64,000 nt of DNA from a virus. Position 1 is the stretch's first letter; the number at the start of each line of letters is the position of its first letter. The translations under genes were made by a program, and so were the position numbers. Shown here one piece after another: positions 33,979 to 59,330 of the stretch. The notes beneath the pieces were generated by a model. That model ran no database searches, was not told the origin of the DNA, and was given only the letters and a program-made list of their open reading frames with translations. The DNA lies in the IMG/VR virus record IMGVR_UViG_3300021960_009431, one strand, 5' to 3'.

Positions 33979-35693
33979 TGATCTATTTTAAATATCTTCG
34001 TTGGAAGAATTTTCTTTCAACTGGAAATGTATTTACTGAATTAAAATTAGATAAAGCAAAATCTACTCTTGTAGTAGGTGAAAATGGTGCTGGTAAAAGT
34101 ACTATGCTCGACGCTTTGTCCTTTGCTCTGTATGGTAAACCGTTTCGTAAAATTAATAAACCTCAACTTATGAATACTATTAACCAAAAAGGTTTAGAAG
34201 TGCAAGTTGAGTTTCGTGTTGGTAAAAAAGAATATATGATCGTACGAGGTGTCAAACCTAATAAGTTTGAGATTTATGAGAACGATAAAATTATTAATCA
34301 AGATGCAGCAGCTAGAGATTATCAAGAAGTCTTAGAAAAAAATATTCTTAAACTTAATCATAAATCCTTTAGTCAGATTGTTGTACTAGGTAGTAGTACG
34401 TTTGTTCCTTTTATGCAACTTCCTTCAATGCATCGTAGAGAAGTTATTGAAGACTTACTTGATATTCAAATTTTCTCTACGATGAACACTCTTTTAAAAG
34501 ATAAAGTAAATAATAATAAATCTGAAATTCTTGATAACGACTATAATATTAATCTTGCTGAAGAAAAGATTAAAATGCAGCACCAGTATATTAATGAGTT
34601 AAAGCAAAACACTGAGAAGCGCGTTAATGAAGCTAAGGTAAAAGTAGTCAAAGCAGAAAAAGAAAAACAAGAATATAATACGTTAATAGATACTCTTCAA
34701 GATCAAGTTAATATATTACAAGAAAGTATTTCTGATTTTGAAAGCTTAACTAAAAAGAAATCTAAGGTAGAGCAGCTAGAATATAAACTTCAAGAAAAAA
34801 TTAAAAAGCTTGAACATGATATTGAGTTCTATCAAGATCATGATAACTGTCCTGTGTGTAAGCAAGACATCGAAGAAGACTTTAAAGATCAGACGATTGA
34901 AGAAAAAGAAACTTCATTAAATGAGACTGTAAATGGTTTTAATCAGTTAAGAGAAGAATGGCAATCGATTAATAATCGTATACAAGAAATCTCTGAAGTA
35001 CAGTTAGATATTTCGTCTAAGCAGAATGAAATTAGCAGTAACAATTCTCACATCAATGCTTTAAATAAACTTATTGACAGTATTAATGAAGATATTACCA
35101 GTATTGATGATAGCGATAAATCAGATAAGTCAGATAAAAAGAAATTAGAGACATTAGAAAAAGCTTTAGTTAAACTACAATCTTATAAAGAAGAAATAAT
35201 AAATGAGCGATCTGTTTTAGATATTGCATCGATGATTCTTAAAGATTCTGGTATTAAAACTCGTATTATTAAACAATATATTCCAGTAATGAATAAACTT
35301 ATTAATAAGTATCTTGCTGCAATGGATTTCTTTGTTGACTTTCAGCTTGATGAAAACTTTAATGAAACTATAAAGAGTAGGTTCCGAGATGTATTTTCCT
35401 ATGCTTCCTTCTCAGAAGGTGAAAAGATGCGTATTGATCTTGCGTTATTGTTTACTTGGAGAGCTGTATCAAAGTTACGTAACTCAGTAAGTACTAATCT
35501 TCTTATTATGGATGAAGTATTTGACTCATCTTTAGATAATACTGGTACAGAAGAGTTTTTAAAGATACTAAATGACTTGACTTCTGATACAAATGTCTTT
35601 ATAATAAGTCATAAAGGTGATCAACTCTATGATAAATTTCATAGTGTTATTCGTTTTGAGAAGCATAAAAACTTTAGTAGGGTTGCAGCATGA
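33978..35693 (+). CDS. gp46: Recombination endonuclease subunit gp46 (Rad50-like)
   Basis: GENGAGKST; CPVC zinc hook; FSEGEKMR; MDEVFD. Confidence 0.97.
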   Translation: MIYFKYLRWKNFLSTGNVFTELKLDKAKSTLVVGENGAGKSTMLDALSFALYGKPFRKINKPQLMNTINQKGLEVQVEFRVGKKEYMIVRGVKPNKFEIYENDKIINQDAAARDYQEVLEKNILKLNHKSFSQIVVLGSSTFVPFMQLPSMHRREVIEDLLDIQIFSTMNTLLKDKVNNNKSEILDNDYNINLAEEKIKMQHQYINELKQNTEKRVNEAKVKVVKAEKEKQEYNTLIDTLQDQVNILQESISDFESLTKKKSKVEQLEYKLQEKIKKLEHDIEFYQDHDNCPVCKQDIEEDFKDQTIEEKETSLNETVNGFNQLREEWQSINNRIQEISEVQLDISSKQNEISSNNSHINALNKLIDSINEDITSIDDSDKSDKSDKKKLETLEKALVKLQSYKEEIINERSVLDIASMILKDSGIKTRIIKQYIPVMNKLINKYLAAMDFFVDFQLDENFNETIKSRFRDVFSYASFSEGEKMRIDLALLFTWRAVSKLRNSVSTNLLIMDEVFDSSLDNTGTEEFLKILNDLTSDTNVFIISHKGDQLYDKFHSVIRFEKHKNFSRVAA

Positions 35694-36226
35694 TAATGAA
35701 TTTAGTGAAATCAAATGATCCAATATTAAAACAGAAATGTGAAATGTTTGATTTTGATAATCCACCGATGGATCCATTAAAATTAGCGCTTGACTTAAGA
35801 GAGAGTATGATATATCATAAGGGTATTGGTTTATCTGCTTGTCAGGTTGGTATACCATATAGAGTATTTGTTGCTGGTGATCCAGGTGATATTGATAATA
35901 TTAAAGTATTTTTTAATCCGAGAGTAGTTGATGCATCGGATCAAAAAGTTTTGATAGAGGAAGGATGCTTATCTTTCCCTGGTTTGTTTATGAAGGTAAA
36001 ACGTCCAGCCACAGTACGACTTCGATTTGCTGATCCTAGAGGTACAATAGCTACAGAGACATATGAAGGTGTACCAGCACGAGCTATTCTACATGAATAT
36101 GATCATATGGATGGTATATTGTTTCATAATCGTGCTAATTCATATCATAGAGATCAAGCAAAAAAACAGAAAAAAAAGTTAGATAGGCTTCGCGAAGCTA
36201 ATAAAAAGAAGCTAAGTAAAGTATAA
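35690..36226 (+). CDS. def: Peptide deformylase
   Basis: GIGLSACQVG, EEGCLS, HEYDHMDG. Confidence 0.93.
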   Translation: MIMNLVKSNDPILKQKCEMFDFDNPPMDPLKLALDLRESMIYHKGIGLSACQVGIPYRVFVAGDPGDIDNIKVFFNPRVVDASDQKVLIEEGCLSFPGLFMKVKRPATVRLRFADPRGTIATETYEGVPARAILHEYDHMDGILFHNRANSYHRDQAKKQKKKLDRLREANKKKLSKV

Positions 36227-36227
36227 T

Positions 36228-36264
36228 CAGTAGTGCCCTTCCACTGCTTAACTAAAACTAGGAG
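36228..36264 (+). ncRNA. Candidate SD-sequestering pseudoknot (preQ1-I-like) in queE leader
   Basis: Stem AGTAGTG/CACTGCT, loop CCCTTC complementary to SD GGAG, A-rich linker TTAACTAAAACTAG. Confidence 0.45.
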
Positions 36265-36270
36265 TTCTAA

Positions 36271-37212
36271 ATGTCCCCGAAAGAATATACGTATTCTGAG
36301 ATCTTTCATTCTATTCAAGGTGAAGGTCATTATACCGGTGTTCCAACTGCATGGATAAGATTTTTCTTATGTAATTTACAGTGCGATGGATTCGGTCAAG
36401 ATCATCCAACTAAACCAGAAACCTGGGATCTACCATATAAAGATTTTGATTCTCACTCTGTAACAAGAGTAGAGGATTTACCGGTATGGTCAAAGGGTTG
36501 TGATTCTTCTTATACCTGGTCTAAAAAGTTTAGACATTTAATGGGTAAAGCTACAGGAGCTGAACTAGCTCAAAAGCTAGTCAATATTATGAAGAATGAG
36601 CATAACCCTGAAGGTTGGTTCTTACACCCGTTATCTAAACAGCATAACCATTTATGTATTACAGGTGGTGAACCTCTAATGCGTCATGCTCAATTGGCGT
36701 TTATAGACATATATAAAACTTTAGAAGAAATGCCAGGTGGTCCATTACCTGATACTCATTTTTACTCTCCTAATAATTTACCTGCAAGTATAACTTGGGA
36801 AACTAATGGTACTCAACCATTAACAGAAGATTTCAAAAATCTTGTAGATAGTCCTTTATTTAGACCTGAAGCTTTCTTTTCCGTATCTCCTAAACTCTGG
36901 ACTGTAGCAGGAGAACAACGAAAGAAAGCAATTAAACCTGAAACTGTAAAAGAATATTATGATATTTCTAAAAACGGTCAGCTTAAATTTGTAGTAGGTC
37001 AAACTAAAGAAGAGTGGGAAGAGTTAGACGAAGTAGTTAATTTGTTTAGAGACGCAGGAGTTAAATATCCTGTATGGATCATGCCTGTAGGAGCAAGATC
37101 AGAAGAGCAAGAAGCCACTGCTGGTGATGTAGCTAAAATGGCATTCGAAAGAGGTTATAATGTCTCTGGAAGAATGCATGTTTATTTATTTGGAAACGCA
37201 ATAGGAACATAA
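36271..37212 (+). CDS. queE: 7-carboxy-7-deazaguanine synthase (radical SAM)
   Basis: EIFHSIQGEG; CNLQC...GCDS; ITGGEPL; ETNGT; SVSPKL. Confidence 0.92.
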   Translation: MSPKEYTYSEIFHSIQGEGHYTGVPTAWIRFFLCNLQCDGFGQDHPTKPETWDLPYKDFDSHSVTRVEDLPVWSKGCDSSYTWSKKFRHLMGKATGAELAQKLVNIMKNEHNPEGWFLHPLSKQHNHLCITGGEPLMRHAQLAFIDIYKTLEEMPGGPLPDTHFYSPNNLPASITWETNGTQPLTEDFKNLVDSPLFRPEAFFSVSPKLWTVAGEQRKKAIKPETVKEYYDISKNGQLKFVVGQTKEEWEELDEVVNLFRDAGVKYPVWIMPVGARSEEQEATAGDVAKMAFERGYNVSGRMHVYLFGNAIGT

Positions 37213-37213
37213 C

Positions 37214-37657
37214 ATGGCATATTATAGTACAAAAACTTACGGACATAATATCGGGCTTTCTGCTGTCTTTAGACAACCTAAAGCTCATTCTCATTGTAAA
37301 TTTTTACATGGGTATAGCTTAGCATTTAAGTTTACTTTTGGTGCTAGTAATTTAGACGAAAGAAACTGGGTAGTAGATTTTGGAGGTTTAAAAACTCTAA
37401 AAAAATGGCTAGAAGACAGCTTTGATCATAAACTAGTATTAGATAGAGATGATCCAATGATGTATAAGTTTGCTGAATTAGAAAATGCTGGTCTAGCTGA
37501 GATTACTGTTTTAGATGGTGTGGGTGTAGAAAGGTTTGCTGAGCATGCATGGAAGTTTGCAGACGATCTTGTAACAGAAGCTTCCGATGGTAGATGTTGG
37601 TGTGAGTCAGTAGAATGTTCAGAACATGGCGCTAATAGTGGAATATATAGGAGATAA
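37214..37657 (+). CDS. queD: 6-carboxy-5,6,7,8-tetrahydropterin synthase
   Basis: HC..LHGY; WVVDFG; FDH; C-terminal E..NS. Confidence 0.9.
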   Translation: MAYYSTKTYGHNIGLSAVFRQPKAHSHCKFLHGYSLAFKFTFGASNLDERNWVVDFGGLKTLKKWLEDSFDHKLVLDRDDPMMYKFAELENAGLAEITVLDGVGVERFAEHAWKFADDLVTEASDGRCWCESVECSEHGANSGIYRR

Positions 37658-37659
37658 AA

Positions 37660-38343
37660 ATGAAGCACAGCGAAGTTATTAAACAACGTATTGAAGAAGC
37701 TGGTATTAGATATTGGGCTGGTGATAACATTAGTGATGTATTACAAGATGGTGATAAAGAATTAATTATTGAAGAAGCTACAAAAGCTTTCGAAAATGTG
37801 CTTGACTCTTTACTAATAGATCGTTATAATGATCCTAATAGTATGGATACAGGTAGACGGTTAGCTAAGATGTATGTAAATGAAGTCATGAGCGGAAGAT
37901 ATAATATAATGCCTAAAGTATCAGCTTTTCCTAATGAAGGAGAAGATCGATATACAGGTATGCTAGTTATACGTTCTGAAGTAAAAAGTATGTGTTCTCA
38001 CCATCATCAACCAGTTACAGGGGTTGCTTATATTGGTGTTATACCTGGTCAAAAAGTAATAGGACTTTCTAAGTATACTCGTATTGCTCAATGGTGTGCA
38101 CGTAGAGGTACATTGCAGGAAGAACTATGTAATGACATTGCTCGTGAGATCCGTAAAGCTACTGACAGTGAAGATGTAGCTGTTTATGTACAAGCTACTC
38201 ACGGGTGCTGTGAGAATAGAGGTATTATGGCTCATAGTTCTCTAACTCAAACTACTGTATTACATGGAGAATTTAATAACGGAGATGTTAAAAAAGAGTT
38301 TTTTGATAATATAAAATTACAGCAGGAGTTTGCTCCAAGATGA
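37660..38343 (+). CDS. folE: GTP cyclohydrolase I
   Basis: SMCSHH; IGLSK..R; LQEEL; HGCCENRG. Confidence 0.95.
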   Translation: MKHSEVIKQRIEEAGIRYWAGDNISDVLQDGDKELIIEEATKAFENVLDSLLIDRYNDPNSMDTGRRLAKMYVNEVMSGRYNIMPKVSAFPNEGEDRYTGMLVIRSEVKSMCSHHHQPVTGVAYIGVIPGQKVIGLSKYTRIAQWCARRGTLQEELCNDIAREIRKATDSEDVAVYVQATHGCCENRGIMAHSSLTQTTVLHGEFNNGDVKKEFFDNIKLQQEFAPR

Positions 38344-38501
38344 ATCATATGAATGTATCTTTTGTAAAAAGTGGTATACGAATAGGAGCTTGTATTTTAG
38401 GAATAACACTTCAAAGTATAACAGCGTTATGTTTTTTCTTGCTATTTGCCGAAATATTAGGTATAATAGAAGAAGTTGTAGATAAACGTGAGGAGAAATA
38501 A
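38340..38501 (+). CDS. 53-aa membrane protein (not in ORF track)
   Basis: MNHMNVSFVKSGIRIGACILG...FFLLFAEILGIIEEVVDKREEK; ATGA overlap with folE and TAATG overlap with the next gene. Confidence 0.7.
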   Translation: MNHMNVSFVKSGIRIGACILGITLQSITALCFFLLFAEILGIIEEVVDKREEK

Positions 38502-39283
38502 TGAAAATAGCGCATGAAGCTCCATTAAGTATCTTTGATCAAGTACAGGAGTTAACTGATTATGATTATGCTCTTGTACATCTATTTGAAGAGAATGATG
38601 ATTATTTTAATAAATTTATAGAAGCAAGAGATAAAGGTAGAGAGATCATTCTTGATAATTCTATCTTTGAACTCGGTACAGCATGGGATAGTGATAGATT
38701 TGCTTACTGGGTAGAGAAACTAAAACCTGATTGGTATATTGTACCTGATGTATTAGATAATAAAGACGCTACAATTGATAGCTTTGATGCGTTCATAGAA
38801 AAGTATCCTAACTTACCTGGAAAACGTATTGCTGTCGCTCAAGGTACTACTTATGAAGAGTTAGTTGATTGCTACGAATATCTTGCATATCATAATAAAG
38901 TAGATAAGATTGGTTTATCATTTAACCATCCGTTTTTTCAAGAATTAAATTTGCATAACAAATACTTTAATATGATGTTTGGAAGACAGATGACTCTAAC
39001 ATCAATGCTAGAAGATAAAATTATTAATAAAGATAAACCGCATCATCTATTAGGATGTGGTCTACCTCAGGAGTTTAGAGACTATGTAGACTATAAATGG
39101 ATTGATTCTATTGATACATCTAATCCTGTTATGCACGGTATTAAAAATGTACGTTACTTAGAGCATGGTTTAGAAGATAAAGAATCAGTAAAAATGTTTA
39201 CTATAATGGACGATAATGTTCTTGCATCTTGGGACGATATAGCTTATAATATAGAGAAGTTTAGAGGTTTCTGTAGTGGATAG
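38501..39283 (+). CDS. dpdA: TGT/DpdA-family 7-deazaguanine transglycosylase (DpdA3-like)
   Basis: TIM-barrel TGT-like motifs ILDNS.FE, IVPDVL, VAQG, HHLLG, SIDTS; embedded in the que cluster. Confidence 0.75.
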   Translation: MKIAHEAPLSIFDQVQELTDYDYALVHLFEENDDYFNKFIEARDKGREIILDNSIFELGTAWDSDRFAYWVEKLKPDWYIVPDVLDNKDATIDSFDAFIEKYPNLPGKRIAVAQGTTYEELVDCYEYLAYHNKVDKIGLSFNHPFFQELNLHNKYFNMMFGRQMTLTSMLEDKIINKDKPHHLLGCGLPQEFRDYVDYKWIDSIDTSNPVMHGIKNVRYLEHGLEDKESVKMFTIMDDNVLASWDDIAYNIEKFRGFCSG

Positions 39284-39806
39284 ATGGATTGCTTTATTTT
39301 CTCAAACTGGTTCTGAAATAGTAGATATAGCAAATCAGCTGGGAGTTTGGCCAGATCGTATTTTTACTGATAATAAAAATATAGAAGATATAAACGTTAA
39401 GCTTAAAAATAAAATAGTGGTAATGTCTCATAATGGTATAGAAGAGACACTACAATATACAAGTGATATGACAGGTAATACTTTAGTTACTCTTCATGGT
39501 TATCTACGTATATTAAGTCCTAAAACATGTAATGTAGGTCTATCAATTTATAACGGTCATCCAGCTTATATCTCTAAACATCCAGAACTTAAAGGAAAAG
39601 ATCCTCAAGAGATGATTTGGAGTGATAGAGATAATTATGATTTTATTGGCTCTACGGTTCATAGAGTGATTGCTGACGTAGATGCTGGAGCTATTGAAGA
39701 AGAAAGTATAAGGAAAAATACTTGCAATTCTAAAGAAGAGCTGTATAATACATTAAGAAAAACATCTTTAGATGCTTGGATTAATTTTTTAAAGGATAAA
39801 TTATGA
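39276..39806 (+). CDS. dpdN: PurN-like formyltransferase (DpdN-like preQ1 formyltransferase)
   Basis: LFSQTGS, LHGYLRIL, IYNGHPA, KGKDP, GSTVHRV..VDAG; adjacent to the dpdA-like gene. Confidence 0.75.
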   Translation: MDRWIALFSQTGSEIVDIANQLGVWPDRIFTDNKNIEDINVKLKNKIVVMSHNGIEETLQYTSDMTGNTLVTLHGYLRILSPKTCNVGLSIYNGHPAYISKHPELKGKDPQEMIWSDRDNYDFIGSTVHRVIADVDAGAIEEESIRKNTCNSKEELYNTLRKTSLDAWINFLKDKL

Positions 39807-40138
39807 GTAAAAAAGATAAAAGCTTTTTTGAAACGTTGACTGTGTCTGTAGATAATACTGATGTTGAACCTACAATTACTTTAGGTGAAATTGATGAAGA
39901 TGGTGAGCCTCGTCCTAATCATTATAGTCAAGATCCTAATTCTATAGAATGTATTGAAGTTATTAAGCAGTTGTGTAAGGAACATCAGAACGATCCTTTT
40001 ACTGACTATAATAGATATCAAGCGTTCAAATATCTTTGGCGTATGGGTAAGAAAGATGATGTATTGTTTGATTTAAATAAAGCTATTACATTTTTGGAGT
40101 TTGCAAGGAAAGCATTAGAGGATGAACGTAATGGATGA
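39803..40138 (+). CDS. DUF3310 (T7 gp1.7-like nucleotide kinase family) protein
   Basis: PNHY...IECIEVI...KYLWRMGKK...DLNKA. Confidence 0.8.
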   Translation: MSKKDKSFFETLTVSVDNTDVEPTITLGEIDEDGEPRPNHYSQDPNSIECIEVIKQLCKEHQNDPFTDYNRYQAFKYLWRMGKKDDVLFDLNKAITFLEFARKALEDERNG

Positions 40139-41063
40139 AATTGAAAAAATTGCTAGTAAGGTATTAGGTAAAACGTCTGACGGATCTACTATGATGCGTT
40201 ATGAAACACCAGATGATATAGATGCTTCTTTACTCGTAGGCGTACCTAGACATCTCAATCGCACTGGTTACGGTATTAGTAATGACGGTTCAGAGTTATT
40301 TCATGGTATTGATGCTTGGAACGGTTATGAGTTTAGTTGTTTATTAGATAATGGATTTCCTGTTTCAGGTCTTCTTAAATGGAACTACCCTTCAGATTCA
40401 GAATGTATTGTTGAATCTAAATCTGCTAAGTTATATCTCAACTCTTTTAATATGGTTAAGATGGGGAAAACAGTTGAAGAAGCTATAGCTAATGTAGAAC
40501 AGAAAATTGATGAAGATATGGCACCTGTACTTGGTATTAGTGATGAATGGGACTTAAATGTATGTCTACATATGAATGAGGATCATACATCACGTCCTAT
40601 TTCAGGAACATTTATTCCACTTGAAGAAATTGTAGATGTAGCATCTATTGAATTTGATCATTATAATGAAGATCCAGAAATTATTAAATTAGAAGTAAAT
40701 GAAGATTATAGAGATATTAAATATCAATCTAAATCTCTTCGCTCTAATTGTCGAGTAACTAACCAGCCTGACTGGGGTGATATCTTTATTCATATAAAAG
40801 GTGATCGTATTCCTACACCTGAATCTTTATTGCAATATATTGTAAGTATGCGTAAAGAAAATCATTTCCATGAGGAAATATGTGAGTGTGTTTATAAACG
40901 TTTACATGATCTTTGTGGTCCAGAAGAATTAGTGGTTGCATGTCTATATACACGTCGTGGTGGTATTGATATTAATCCAGTAAGAGCAAGTAGTCCTCAA
41001 TTACTTACTCAACATCCGATCACCGACGCATTTAATATGTGTGATAAAACTATGCGTCAGTAA
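40131..41063 (+). CDS. queF: NADPH-dependent preQ0 reductase, bimodular type
   Basis: ESKSAKLYLNSFN; SNCRVTNQPDWG; FHEEICE; YTRRGGIDINP. Confidence 0.93.
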   Translation: MDEIEKIASKVLGKTSDGSTMMRYETPDDIDASLLVGVPRHLNRTGYGISNDGSELFHGIDAWNGYEFSCLLDNGFPVSGLLKWNYPSDSECIVESKSAKLYLNSFNMVKMGKTVEEAIANVEQKIDEDMAPVLGISDEWDLNVCLHMNEDHTSRPISGTFIPLEEIVDVASIEFDHYNEDPEIIKLEVNEDYRDIKYQSKSLRSNCRVTNQPDWGDIFIHIKGDRIPTPESLLQYIVSMRKENHFHEEICECVYKRLHDLCGPEELVVACLYTRRGGIDINPVRASSPQLLTQHPITDAFNMCDKTMRQ

Positions 41064-41115
41064 GTGGTTCATGAAAGCTAACCACTTTAAAAAACATACC
41101 GCTTTCATATTGGAG
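41062..41115 (+). ncRNA. preQ1-I riboswitch-like H-type pseudoknot (variant) in queC leader
   Basis: AAGTGG-TTCATG-AAAGCTAA-CCACTT-TAAAAAA-CATA, then GCTTTCAT complementary to loop ATGAAAGC, just before SD GGAG. Confidence 0.65.
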
Positions 41116-41121
41116 AACTAA

Positions 41122-41937
41122 ATGAAAAATATCGTTGTATCATTATCTGGAGGAATGGACTCCTCTACTCTACTGTTGCGCGCTATCAAAGAGGTAGGTG
41201 CAAGTAATGTAACAGCTTTGTCATTTGATTATGGACAGAAGCACGTTTGTGAATTAGAACGTGCTAAAGAAATAGTAAACTATCTTGCAGTACATGGGCA
41301 TACAATCAGGTATCAAGTTATTAAACTTGATGGTATTACTGAGTTGTTATCTTCAGCCCTTGTATCTGGAGGTGCAGATGTGCCTGAAGGTCATTATGCA
41401 GAAGATAATATGAAGCAGACGGTTGTACCTAATCGTAATAAAATCTTTGCTTCATTAGTTCAAGCTGTTGCTTTATCTGTAGTAAAAAATACTGAACAAG
41501 AAACAGCTATTGCATTAGGTATTCATGCCGGTGATCATGCAATTTACCCTGATTGTCGTCAAGAGTTTCGTGATGCAGATGATGAAGCATTTCGAATTGG
41601 TAACTGGGATGCTGATAAAGTAACTTATTTTACTCCTTATCTTGAAGGTGATAAGTTCGATATTCTAAAAGACGGTGAAGTACTTTGCGAGCAGCTAGGT
41701 TTAGACTTTGATGAAGTTTATTCTCGTACAAACACCTCATACAAACCTTTACAGATTGATGGAGTGTGGTTCTCTGATTATAAGAGTTCTTCTTCTGTCG
41801 AACGTCTGGAAGCGTTTATTAAACTAGGACGTCCTGATCCTGTCGCATATGCTGACGAAACAGGTCCTGTTCCTTATGAGATAGCTAGAGCACATGCTCA
41901 GCTAGTACTCAAGGAATATCAAAGTAACGCAGCATGA
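41122..41937 (+). CDS. queC: 7-cyano-7-deazaguanine synthase
   Basis: SLSGGMDS PP-loop; YGQKH; VPNRN; YPDCR. Confidence 0.93.
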   Translation: MKNIVVSLSGGMDSSTLLLRAIKEVGASNVTALSFDYGQKHVCELERAKEIVNYLAVHGHTIRYQVIKLDGITELLSSALVSGGADVPEGHYAEDNMKQTVVPNRNKIFASLVQAVALSVVKNTEQETAIALGIHAGDHAIYPDCRQEFRDADDEAFRIGNWDADKVTYFTPYLEGDKFDILKDGEVLCEQLGLDFDEVYSRTNTSYKPLQIDGVWFSDYKSSSSVERLEAFIKLGRPDPVAYADETGPVPYEIARAHAQLVLKEYQSNAA

Positions 41938-41948
41938 AAGGATAATAA

Positions 41949-42557
41949 ATGCTGAAACAAATGTTTAATCTCGAAGCAGTAGATCGATCTCTATTGTGGA
42001 AACTGGTACTTACACATCTAGTAATCATTGCTGCTTCAAACTATATTGTTCAATTTAGTGGTATGATTTTTGGTTACCACTTTACATGGGCAATGTTTAT
42101 CTTCCCACTTGTAGTGATTGCTACTGACTTAACTATCCGATTAACTAATAAGTATCAAGCTCGAATGGTAGTAGCTATTGCTTTTATTCCAGCTATTTTT
42201 ATTAGCTCTTATATTGCTACTCCAATGATTGGATTAGCTAGTGCTCTTGCATATCTAGTAGGTCAGTTATTTGATGTATCTGTCTTTCAGAAAATTAGAG
42301 AAGCATTTACAGAACGTTGGTGGGTAGCACCTGCAGTATCAACGTTTGTTGCTAATATTGTTGATACCTATCTATTCTTCTGGGCAGCATTCGCATATGG
42401 CAATGATGAGTTTATGGCAGCTAATTGGTTAGAAATTGCTACTGTAGATGTAATCTTTAAAATTATCGTATCATTTGTAATGTTCTTACCTATATACGGT
42501 GTACTACTTCGATATCTACGTACACGTATGGAAGTAGGTACAGGTGGAACTTATTAA
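41949..42557 (+). CDS. yhhQ: Queuosine-precursor (preQ0/preQ1) transporter, YhhQ/Vut_1 family
   Basis: ASNY, FP....TD, AY.VGQ.FDV.VF, S.FVANIVDT.LFF; about six TM helices. Confidence 0.88.
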   Translation: MLKQMFNLEAVDRSLLWKLVLTHLVIIAASNYIVQFSGMIFGYHFTWAMFIFPLVVIATDLTIRLTNKYQARMVVAIAFIPAIFISSYIATPMIGLASALAYLVGQLFDVSVFQKIREAFTERWWVAPAVSTFVANIVDTYLFFWAAFAYGNDEFMAANWLEIATVDVIFKIIVSFVMFLPIYGVLLRYLRTRMEVGTGGTY

Positions 42558-42572
42558 AAATAAGGTTATATA

Positions 42573-43079
42573 ATGACAATGATTAATATCGGAGGCAGTA
42601 ATGCTGCCTCCTCTTTAACTAACGTTCAAGAAAAAGACGTTCAACCTAATGCAGTTGATTTGCGGGTTGATAAAATTCTAAAGATTCTCGGTAATGATTT
42701 TACTATTGACGAGGATCAAAAAGTTCATAGAGGATCAGAAGAACTAGAGCCTGATAAAGATGGTTACTTTCATCTTGAACCAGGTGCTTATGAAGTATTA
42801 ATGGAAAATATTATTACTATTGGTCATGGAGAAGCTGGTTGGGTTATTCCTCGTTCTACTTTAAATCGTAATGGTGTATTTCTAACTTCTGGATTATATG
42901 ATTCAGGTTATAAAGGTGTTATGGCTAGTGTAATGCATGTTACTACAGGTACAATGCATATTGCTAAAGGTACACGTATCGGTCAATATCTTAACTTTCA
43001 AGCAGAGACATTATCTATGTATGACGGTGATTATGGTATTGGTAAAGAGTTTGACAAAAAAAATTATGAGGGGAAATGA
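42573..43079 (+). CDS. Trimeric dUTPase / dCTP-deaminase-fold protein
   Basis: QPNAVDLR; PRSTLNRNG; YDSGYKG; RIGQ. Confidence 0.85.
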   Translation: MTMINIGGSNAASSLTNVQEKDVQPNAVDLRVDKILKILGNDFTIDEDQKVHRGSEELEPDKDGYFHLEPGAYEVLMENIITIGHGEAGWVIPRSTLNRNGVFLTSGLYDSGYKGVMASVMHVTTGTMHIAKGTRIGQYLNFQAETLSMYDGDYGIGKEFDKKNYEGK

Positions 43080-59088: not shown

Positions 59089-59165
59089 CTCCGCTTAGCT
59101 CAGCTGGATAGAGCAAGTGCCTTCTAAGCACTAGGTCGGGGGTTCGAATCCCTCAGCGGAGGCCA
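59089..59165 (+). tRNA. tRNA-Arg(TCT)
   Basis: Acceptor CTCCGCT/AGCGGAG; anticodon arm AGTGC-CTTCTAA-GCACT; TTCGAAT loop; encoded CCA. Confidence 0.95.
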
Positions 59166-59168
59166 TAA

Positions 59169-59243
59169 AAGGGTGAAGTGTTAACGGCTGCACGTCGGAT
59201 TCCAAATCCGAAAGATAGGGTTCGACTCCTTACACCTTTGCCA
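59169..59243 (+). tRNA. tRNA-Trp(CCA)
   Basis: Acceptor AAGGGTG/CACCTTT; TCGGA-TTCCAAA-TCCGA; G discriminator; CCA. Confidence 0.9.
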
Positions 59244-59253
59244 CACTGTTTAA

Positions 59254-59330
59254 GCTCTCGTAGCTCAATTGGTTAGAGCGCCCCGCTCATAACGGGTCGG
59301 TTGCAGGTTCGAGTCCTGCCAGGAGCACCA
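59254..59330 (+). tRNA. tRNA with CAT anticodon, probably Ile2 (lysidine) rather than Met
   Basis: G1-C72 paired; CCCG-CTCATAA-CGGG; GCAGGTTCGAGTCCTGC T-arm resembling alphaproteobacterial Ile2; CCA. Confidence 0.85.

Follow-up and report, generated by a model that had tools for sequence, protein, structure and literature searches.

The DNA analysed here, referred to as the window, is a 64,000-nucleotide stretch of AT-rich phage sequence (34% GC) with nearly all of its genes on the + strand. Around the leader of interest the gene order is sbcD/gp47-like, sbcC/gp46-like, def, queE, queD, folE, a small ORF and a gene for a DpdA-like protein of 260 aa. These are followed by genes for a PurN-type formyltransferase, which is DpdN-like, a DUF3310 protein, queF, queC, a yhhQ-like transporter and a protein of the dCTP-deaminase/dUTPase fold (Table 1). 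Relatives of the queE product carry the QueE annotation in Vibrio and other phages. The gp46 homologue shares around 50% identity with its counterparts in T4-like phages of Stenotrophomonas, Synechococcus, Methylophilales and Sinorhizobium; judged from its sequence, the source is a T4-like, uncultured phage. Nucleotide and short-motif BLAST searches against 50,697 cultured-phage records gave no match, and the nearest QueE from an isolate phage is 44% identical to that of the window.

We note some further features of the window. Three tRNA genes are clustered at 59089–59327 (Rfam tRNA, 46–67 bits). Boxes of the type (T)TATAAATA, resembling T4 late promoters, precede several genes (for example upstream of 17148, 25317, 26801 and 27982) and TATAAT-type boxes precede others; the mix suggests T4-like temporal promoter classes. 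The transporter gene (41949–42557), of the YhhQ/Vut_1 family, sits inside the deazaguanine operon and is limited to the nearest relatives of the window, being found in two of the 26 long loci described below. The type III preQ1-I riboswitch of E. coli controls yhhQ, the gene of a preQ0/preQ1 importer.

Table 1 Genes and leader RNA segments at the def–queE locus, in window coordinates
Feature	Position	Strand	Basis and remarks
def (peptide deformylase)	35690–36226	+	ORF; Pfam Pep_deformylase, E = 6e-37
P1 5′ arm, AGUAGUG	36229–36235	+	Outer bases covary; inner GUG invariant, even in the scan leaving GUG free
Pyrimidine loop, CCCUUC	36236–36241	+	Invariant; holds candidate P2 5′ strand (C237 C238 U239) and candidate specificity cytidine C241
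P1 3′ arm, CACUGCU	36242–36248	+	Fold and covariation
Variable linker, UAACU	36249–36253	+	First part of L3; sequence variable, length constrained
Conserved A-tract and CU, AAAACU	36254–36259	+	Candidate L3 segment for docking in the P1 minor groove
Shine-Dalgarno, AGGAG	36260–36264	+	Invariant; A260–G262 candidate P2 3′ strand
queE (7-carboxy-7-deazaguanine synthase homologue)	36271–37212	+	ORF; weak Radical_SAM match; first gene of the operon
Remaining 7-deazaguanine module, queD to dCTP-deaminase/dUTPase-fold gene	37214–43079	+	Pfam matches

The spacer between def and queE is 44 bases long, and the queE ATG is at 36271. The earlier note on this DNA had placed within the spacer a stem, a loop, a linker and a Shine-Dalgarno (SD) sequence. 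All four are present in the sequence where it had put them, and the minimum-free-energy fold of the spacer is exactly the proposed hairpin. The stem, P1, has seven pairs, one of which is U231·G246 (leader nucleotides carry the last three digits of their window positions). The sequence from the A-tract through the SD is AAAACUAGGAG. The blocks GTGCCCTTCCAC and AAAACTAGGAG occur once each in the 64 kb, and the window contains one copy of the whole motif. The fold energy is ordinary within the window (z = −0.34 in a 71 nt context), the hairpin alone contributing −6.8 kcal/mol. As the fold is no better than chance, the case for this leader rests on comparison with other sequences. The TAA stop codon of def (36224–36226) lies 2 nt upstream of the hairpin, so that ribosomes terminating on def must melt P1; its opening in this way may couple the translation of queE to that of def.

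It had also been proposed that the loop pairs with the SD through CUUC and GGAG. This complementarity does exist, with one G·U pair, and is weak. An alternative register, CCU with AGG, is also available. Isolated duplexes between loop and SD have energies of −0.8 to −2.8 kcal/mol, the best being CCU/AGG at −2.8 kcal/mol, and on average the SD is 82% unpaired in nested folds. Occlusion of the SD would thus need a ligand or tertiary contacts, as it does in preQ1-I riboswitches. Of the two registers we rate the second (C237–G262, C238–G261, U239–A260) as likelier than the one originally proposed, on the analogy with the type III riboswitch (PMC10622847) discussed below and on nearest-neighbour energy. 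This candidate helix is called P2.

The search for related leaders was protein-guided at the start, the window QueE as query giving 51 viral loci. The leader of the window is shared by an identical contig and by two loci (L035 and L051) whose QueE is only about 50% identical. In these two loci the outer stems differ from that of the window, and GUG-CCCUUC-CAC and the tail from A-tract to SD are identical. Pattern scans in which one block at a time was left free enlarged the family. With CCCTTC and the tail fixed, all matches having a stem show GTG/CAC; with GTG-N6-CAC and the tail fixed, real members have no loop other than CCCTTC; and with GTGCCCTTCCAC and AAAAC fixed, CTAGGAG is the sole continuation. 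Freeing loop positions 2–4 and SD positions 1–3 jointly returned CCU...AGG alone. Loop/SD variants that would show covariation in P2 were sought by these scans, which gave the canonical sequence and chance matches only.

The family so defined comprises 38 distinct versions on about 100 aquatic phage or metagenome contigs. The strict pattern is carried by 42 viral and 57 metagenome contigs; its chance expectation in the viral collection is, by our own estimate, around 0.03. Two complete or near-complete genomes of about 160 kb have one copy each, scoring 58–64 bits against at most 14.6 bits for the next match. Among 185,579 prokaryote genomes there is a single match (L300; FZLS01000081.1, Rhodobacteraceae bacterium Water_Bin34). 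It is an 11.6 kb low-coverage metagenome-bin contig with the order def-motif-queE. Probably it is of phage origin and was grouped with a Rhodobacteraceae genome by the binning, which may hint at the host. The closest relatives of the window QueE are encoded by genes that are not preceded by the motif, as is the case for most phage queE genes. Searched with a model, loci that lack the motif (48 having a window-type QueE and 78 a subfamily B QueE) showed no divergent copy before queE, the sole weaker relatives being hairpins before folE. The motif is restricted to one group of uncultured phages.

The earlier note had suggested that spacers of related phages be compared for covariation. The comparison was made on an alignment (A3) of 38 rows, one for each distinct version, and it supports the stem. 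The three outer pairs of P1 each show four to five standard pair types, with 12–17 double changes per pair, and pairing in helix 2 reaches 99.6%. The real alignment has a covariation score of 0.352, compared to 0.073 ± 0.015 in shuffled alignments, none of 500 of which reach it, and slid pairing registers all collapse. The compared sequences thus indicate that the P1 hairpin is a real RNA structure. G·U pairs (at least six) outnumber A·C combinations (about one) across the versions, pointing to an RNA read from the + strand.

While the outer pairs vary freely, the top three pairs of P1, the six loop bases and eleven tail bases show no variation. The G235–C242 pair sits atop P1 in 38 of 38 versions; C241, with a U before it, is equally constant, as is AAACU, and C236 and C237 follow the 5′ strand of P1 in every version. 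The blocks GUGCCCUUCCAC and AAACUAGGAG are thus identical throughout, in carriers whose proteins are as little as 36% (QueE) and 34% (Def) identical to one another, which argues for extreme purifying selection on the leader. The distance from CAC to AAAC is 10 nt in 32 of the 38 versions, as a defined tertiary fold would lead one to expect, and the SD is 5–6 nt upstream of the start codon in 34. Conservation of the complementarity between loop and SD had been put forward as a check on the pseudoknot; both partners are invariant in the 38 versions, and covariation therefore neither supports nor refutes this pairing.

The leader had been described as standing at the head of a deazaguanine operon, and this holds for the family: the motif is a conserved, structured and operon-specific leader that overlaps the SD. 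In every version a 7-deazaguanine operon begins 5–8 nt downstream of it. The first gene encodes QueE in 35 of 38 versions, with QueD, a flavodoxin and a small ORF in one each. Where QueD is first (L338), QueE comes next, and QueE likewise follows the small ORF of 54 aa (L351). The flavodoxin gene (Pfam E = 5e-11) is found on a marine TARA contig (L332:592-1125, − strand). QueE, a radical-SAM enzyme, needs a reductant of the flavodoxin type and has flavodoxin as its physiological one, which makes a flavodoxin gene in first place worthy of mention. Twenty-six member loci have at least 6 kb of downstream sequence (the long loci); def lies upstream of the motif in 17 of them, and QueE, QueD, FolE, the DpdA-like protein, the formyltransferase and QueF are present in all 26. 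The same gene set has been linked to DNA containing 7-(formylamino)methyl-7-deazaguanine (PMC10516641), and formyl-preQ1 DNA is the product predicted for the phage operon.

Two other leaders were observed in these phages. In the window, positions 41064–41121 before queC contain a second, different preQ1-I-like leader, consisting of a AGUGGUUC...ACCACU stem, an A-rich tail, a GCUUUCA repeat and GGAG. The nearest relatives of the window (L053, L192, L062, L092 and L194) are the sole carriers of the queE motif in which this leader is kept. Phages whose QueE is 75–85% identical to that of the window have no leader before queE, and have instead a hairpin in the queE–folE spacer (L009:3179-3225, L010/L012/L013, L018:796-837, L359 and L362). 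This hairpin has 7 bp, AUAGAGG-CCUC/CCUU-CCUCUAU, with an A-rich stretch and then CUAGGA(G) between it and folE. It resembles the queE motif with the C·C mismatch replaced by a G–C pair. The linker of L018, at 4 nt, is too short for a pseudoknot.

The motif was compared with the known preQ1-I riboswitches. An Rfam search of the window gave no family at threshold except the three tRNAs. The PreQ1 model RF00522 did not match the window version at its gathering threshold, nor at E ≤ 10 when 301 nt or 66 nt were searched. In member records the model gave 21.6, 14.2, 14.2, 12.7 and 10.5 bits on the motif and no match to it in three of eight records; the curated gathering threshold is 39 bits and none of these matches reaches it. 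The likeness of the tail to preQ1-I tails, pointed out in the earlier note, is borne out in that the motif is the best RF00522 match, albeit sub-threshold, of the entire record in five of the eight. These matches arise because the tail UAACAAAACUAGGAG matches the consensus AUAAAAAACUAAGgA, with the model taking the outer 5 bp as P1. The segment from A-tract to SD matches the RF00522 consensus tail AAAAAACUA. The note had also regarded the class as uncertain, the GGUUC signature being absent; we agree, as RF00522 is never at its cut-off and a type III model (below) misses the motif.

Of the three subtypes, type II (T. tengcongensis, B. subtilis queC) is the one represented by the RF00522 consensus. 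The motif tail, UAAC(U)AAAACUAGGAG, is close to AUAAAAAACUAAGgA, and the SD is at the 3′ end of the putative aptamer as in translational type II examples. The motif differs in lacking both GGUUC and a loop G to pair with the tail C.

Type III, the smallest subtype, has a pyrimidine-rich loop, a variable linker and four to five conserved adenines, and occurs in the E. coli yhhQ leader and in other Pseudomonadota (PMC10622847, PMC11625349). Its P2 is formed with the SD by C9–G30, C10–G29 and U11–A28, and preQ1 is contacted by U6, C14 and A27 (PMC10622847). Scanning with a pattern built from the published description yielded over 85 genuine type III sequences from bacteria, whose consensus is NNGGG-UUCCCUYAC-CCCNN-linker-AAAAAGG. 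Against this consensus the motif loop CCCUUC aligns base by base with C8 C9 C10 U11 Y12 C14, and the possible CCU:AGG pairing in the motif equals the type III P2. The small H-type layout, the conserved P1 top, the linker and the A-tract are also shared, as are an SD where the 3′ strand of P2 would lie, a cytidine immediately preceding the 3′ strand of P1 and the placement before preQ1-related genes. The differences are substantial. The motif has no counterpart of U6, U7 or A13, its loop being 6 nt rather than 9, and its P1 is 7 bp long, with G–C, U–A and G–C at the top rather than three G–C pairs. Between the A-tract and AGG it has CU, placing U259 where type III has a ligand-contacting adenine. 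It is also found in phages only, apart from the one Rhodobacteraceae metagenome-bin contig. A model built from 60 bacterial type III sequences (R2) gave no match to the motif at E ≤ 10 in the window and 25 member loci, and the reciprocal search of type III sequences with a model built from the motif (R1) gave no match.

Type I, for which the Carnobacterium antarcticum riboswitch binds two stacked preQ1 molecules, has as signature UC ahead of the 3′ strand of P1 and a tail with AAAACUA (PMC8752633). Both are found in the motif, as U240 C241 and as A254–A260, and in both RNAs the tail cytidine (C258 in the motif) has no loop guanine as partner. The UU of L1 in type I is CC in the motif, which also lacks the purine-containing middle of the type I loop (about 6 nt).

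Considering the three subtypes together, the motif has a P1 with covariation support, a G–C pair atop P1, a candidate specificity cytidine (C241) and an A-rich L3 before the candidate 3′ strand of P2. The G–C pair forms the floor of the pocket and is invariant in all preQ1-I subtypes (PMC10622847). The CU before AGG is as in types I and II and unlike type III. The gene setting is shared as well, the motif always preceding the first gene of a folE-queD-queE-queC-queF cluster. The uridine or uridines of L1 that contact preQ1 in all subtypes are missing or are replaced by cytidine (C236, C237); a U-to-C change at this site of the type III riboswitch from E. coli costs about 35,000-fold in affinity and so abolishes binding (PMC10622847). 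By sequence, then, the motif is preQ1-I-like in architecture, yet no profile test makes it a member and a defining ligand contact is absent.

Our preferred explanation, to which we give a probability of about one half, is that the leader is a miniature translational riboswitch variant of preQ1-I type that senses a 7-deazaguanine base, the ligand binding being putative. A cis-acting RNA of about 36 nt (36229–36264) would control the initiation of translation of the first gene of the operon. P1 would always be formed, with the A-tract of the tail in the minor groove of the invariant P1 top (G233–C244, U234–A243, G235–C242). The 7-deazaguanine base would pair with C241 and stack on the G235–C242 pair; since the operon makes preQ1, this is the most likely ligand. 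Its binding would stabilise the 3 bp P2 between loop C237 C238 U239 and SD A260 G261 G262, hiding the ribosome-binding site and lowering QueE synthesis. Without ligand the SD would be free and queE translated. We infer the pseudoknot, the ligand and the direction of regulation; what the aptamer reading offers is a joint account of the P1 top, the pyrimidine loop, the A-tract at fixed distance, the SD and the pathway-specific placement. Points against it are the altered L1 and U259, the low RF00522 scores, the failure of R1 and R2 to detect each other's family, the pocket that G235 would fill in cis were the outer 5 bp taken as P1, and the restriction of the motif to one phage group, most phage queE genes being without it. 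A more specific version is that the motif is a fourth, phage-only subtype of preQ1 class I, in which one or two cytidines are all that remains of L1, the ligand contacts pass to C258 and U259, and preQ1 or a phage-specific derivative such as the N-formyl-preQ1 base is sensed. We regard this version as tentative, with the odds against it. If it were true, the motif, with just 23 invariant nucleotides and a 6 nt loop, would be among the smallest natural metabolite sensors and, together with the queC leader, would allow the phage to adjust the flux that goes into replacing all the guanine of its DNA.

The conserved features could also be those of a translational operator bound by protein. In T4, the hairpin of the gene 43 leader and the pseudoknot of the gene 32 leader are operators that bind their own gene products. 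Like the motif, they are small and structured and lie over or next to the SD of a gene in a T4-like phage; the motif differs from them in having a sequence that resembles a metabolite aptamer. By analogy, a phage or host protein would bind the top and loop of the hairpin, cover the SD and repress (or activate) queE. An invariant loop with invariant closing pairs on a covarying stem is typical of hairpins recognised by proteins, the phages belong to the T4-like group, known for translational operators, and the departures from the preQ1 pocket (C236 and C237 not U, U259 not A) would be harmless. An operator of this kind leaves unexplained the conserved A-tract, the CUA and the exact 10 nt spacing, as well as the likeness to preQ1-I in front of preQ1 genes, and no RNA-binding domain is found among the conserved neighbours; we consider it unlikely. 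A ligand-independent structured leader, which taken over all its forms we also judge improbable, might be a fossil of a preQ1-I riboswitch that acts as a constitutive attenuator of the SD, its pocket filled in cis by G235–C242 and U234–A243. Taking the outer 5 bp as P1 gives the loop UGCCCUUCCA, which matches type III UUCCCUYAC at seven of nine positions; G235 then pairs with the cytidine equivalent to the specificity base and the pocket would indeed be filled in cis. The folE hairpins of related phages, in which a G–C pair closes a CCUY tetraloop (GAGG-CCUC/CCUU-CCUC) ahead of an A-rich stretch and CUAGGA, are in line with such a fossil. Other forms are a 5′ or intercistronic stabiliser and a signal for def–queE processing or coupling, for which the melting of the hairpin by ribosomes terminating on def speaks. 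A purely structural role should, however, tolerate compensatory change, whereas the P1 top, loop and tail are invariant, and a single copy placed before one pathway argues for a pathway-specific signal.

That the element has no function as RNA, being instead a chance hairpin, a palindrome or operator at the level of DNA, a promoter, a terminator or a small leader ORF, is refuted in practice and we consider it very improbable. The unremarkable fold energy would fit such a reading, and each of three signals in the sequence could be taken for it, namely a TATAAT that overlaps the def stop, a terminator-like site called on the minus strand by a consensus scan and a GTG-initiated ORF that begins inside the hairpin. 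Against it stand the compensatory changes in the 38 versions, with G·U pairs that fit the + strand only, and the excess of strict-pattern contigs over the chance expectation given above. The individual candidates were rejected on their own grounds. As a promoter, TATAAT (36222–36227) is not kept by near relatives, which have TATAAC and TATGAA, and it is probably just def codons. The + strand has no U-tract to make an intrinsic terminator, and the sole terminator-like call is the hairpin itself, read on the gene-free minus strand. The GTG frame of the hairpin stops before AAACUAGGAG, in some versions right after VPFH, or shifts in 11 of the 38 versions, so a leader peptide was rejected. Separately, we observed a −10-like box preceding the motif in phages with subfamily B QueE (L214).

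In the literature searched no riboswitch is described in phage 7-deazaguanine clusters, and the paper on the phage pathway (PMC10516641) makes no mention of riboswitches. From its sequence the motif looks like an uncatalogued relative of the bacterial preQ1 riboswitch. Even as a protein operator it would mark a conserved control point at the head of the pathway. Whether formylation takes place on the free base or on DNA is a question raised for this pathway (PMC10516641), and the strict link of the motif to operons with QueF, the DpdA-like protein and the DpdN-like formyltransferase provides a handle on it; a sensor specific for formyl-preQ1, if that is what the leader is, would imply a pool of the free base. 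If a ligand is bound, the motif would add a naturally reduced form of the smallest aptamer fold known, and one in which the usual preQ1-contacting uridines are gone, which would make it informative for RNA–ligand recognition and aptamer design. Riboswitch control would then extend from the tRNA-queuosine metabolism of bacteria to the anti-restriction hypermodification of phage DNA.
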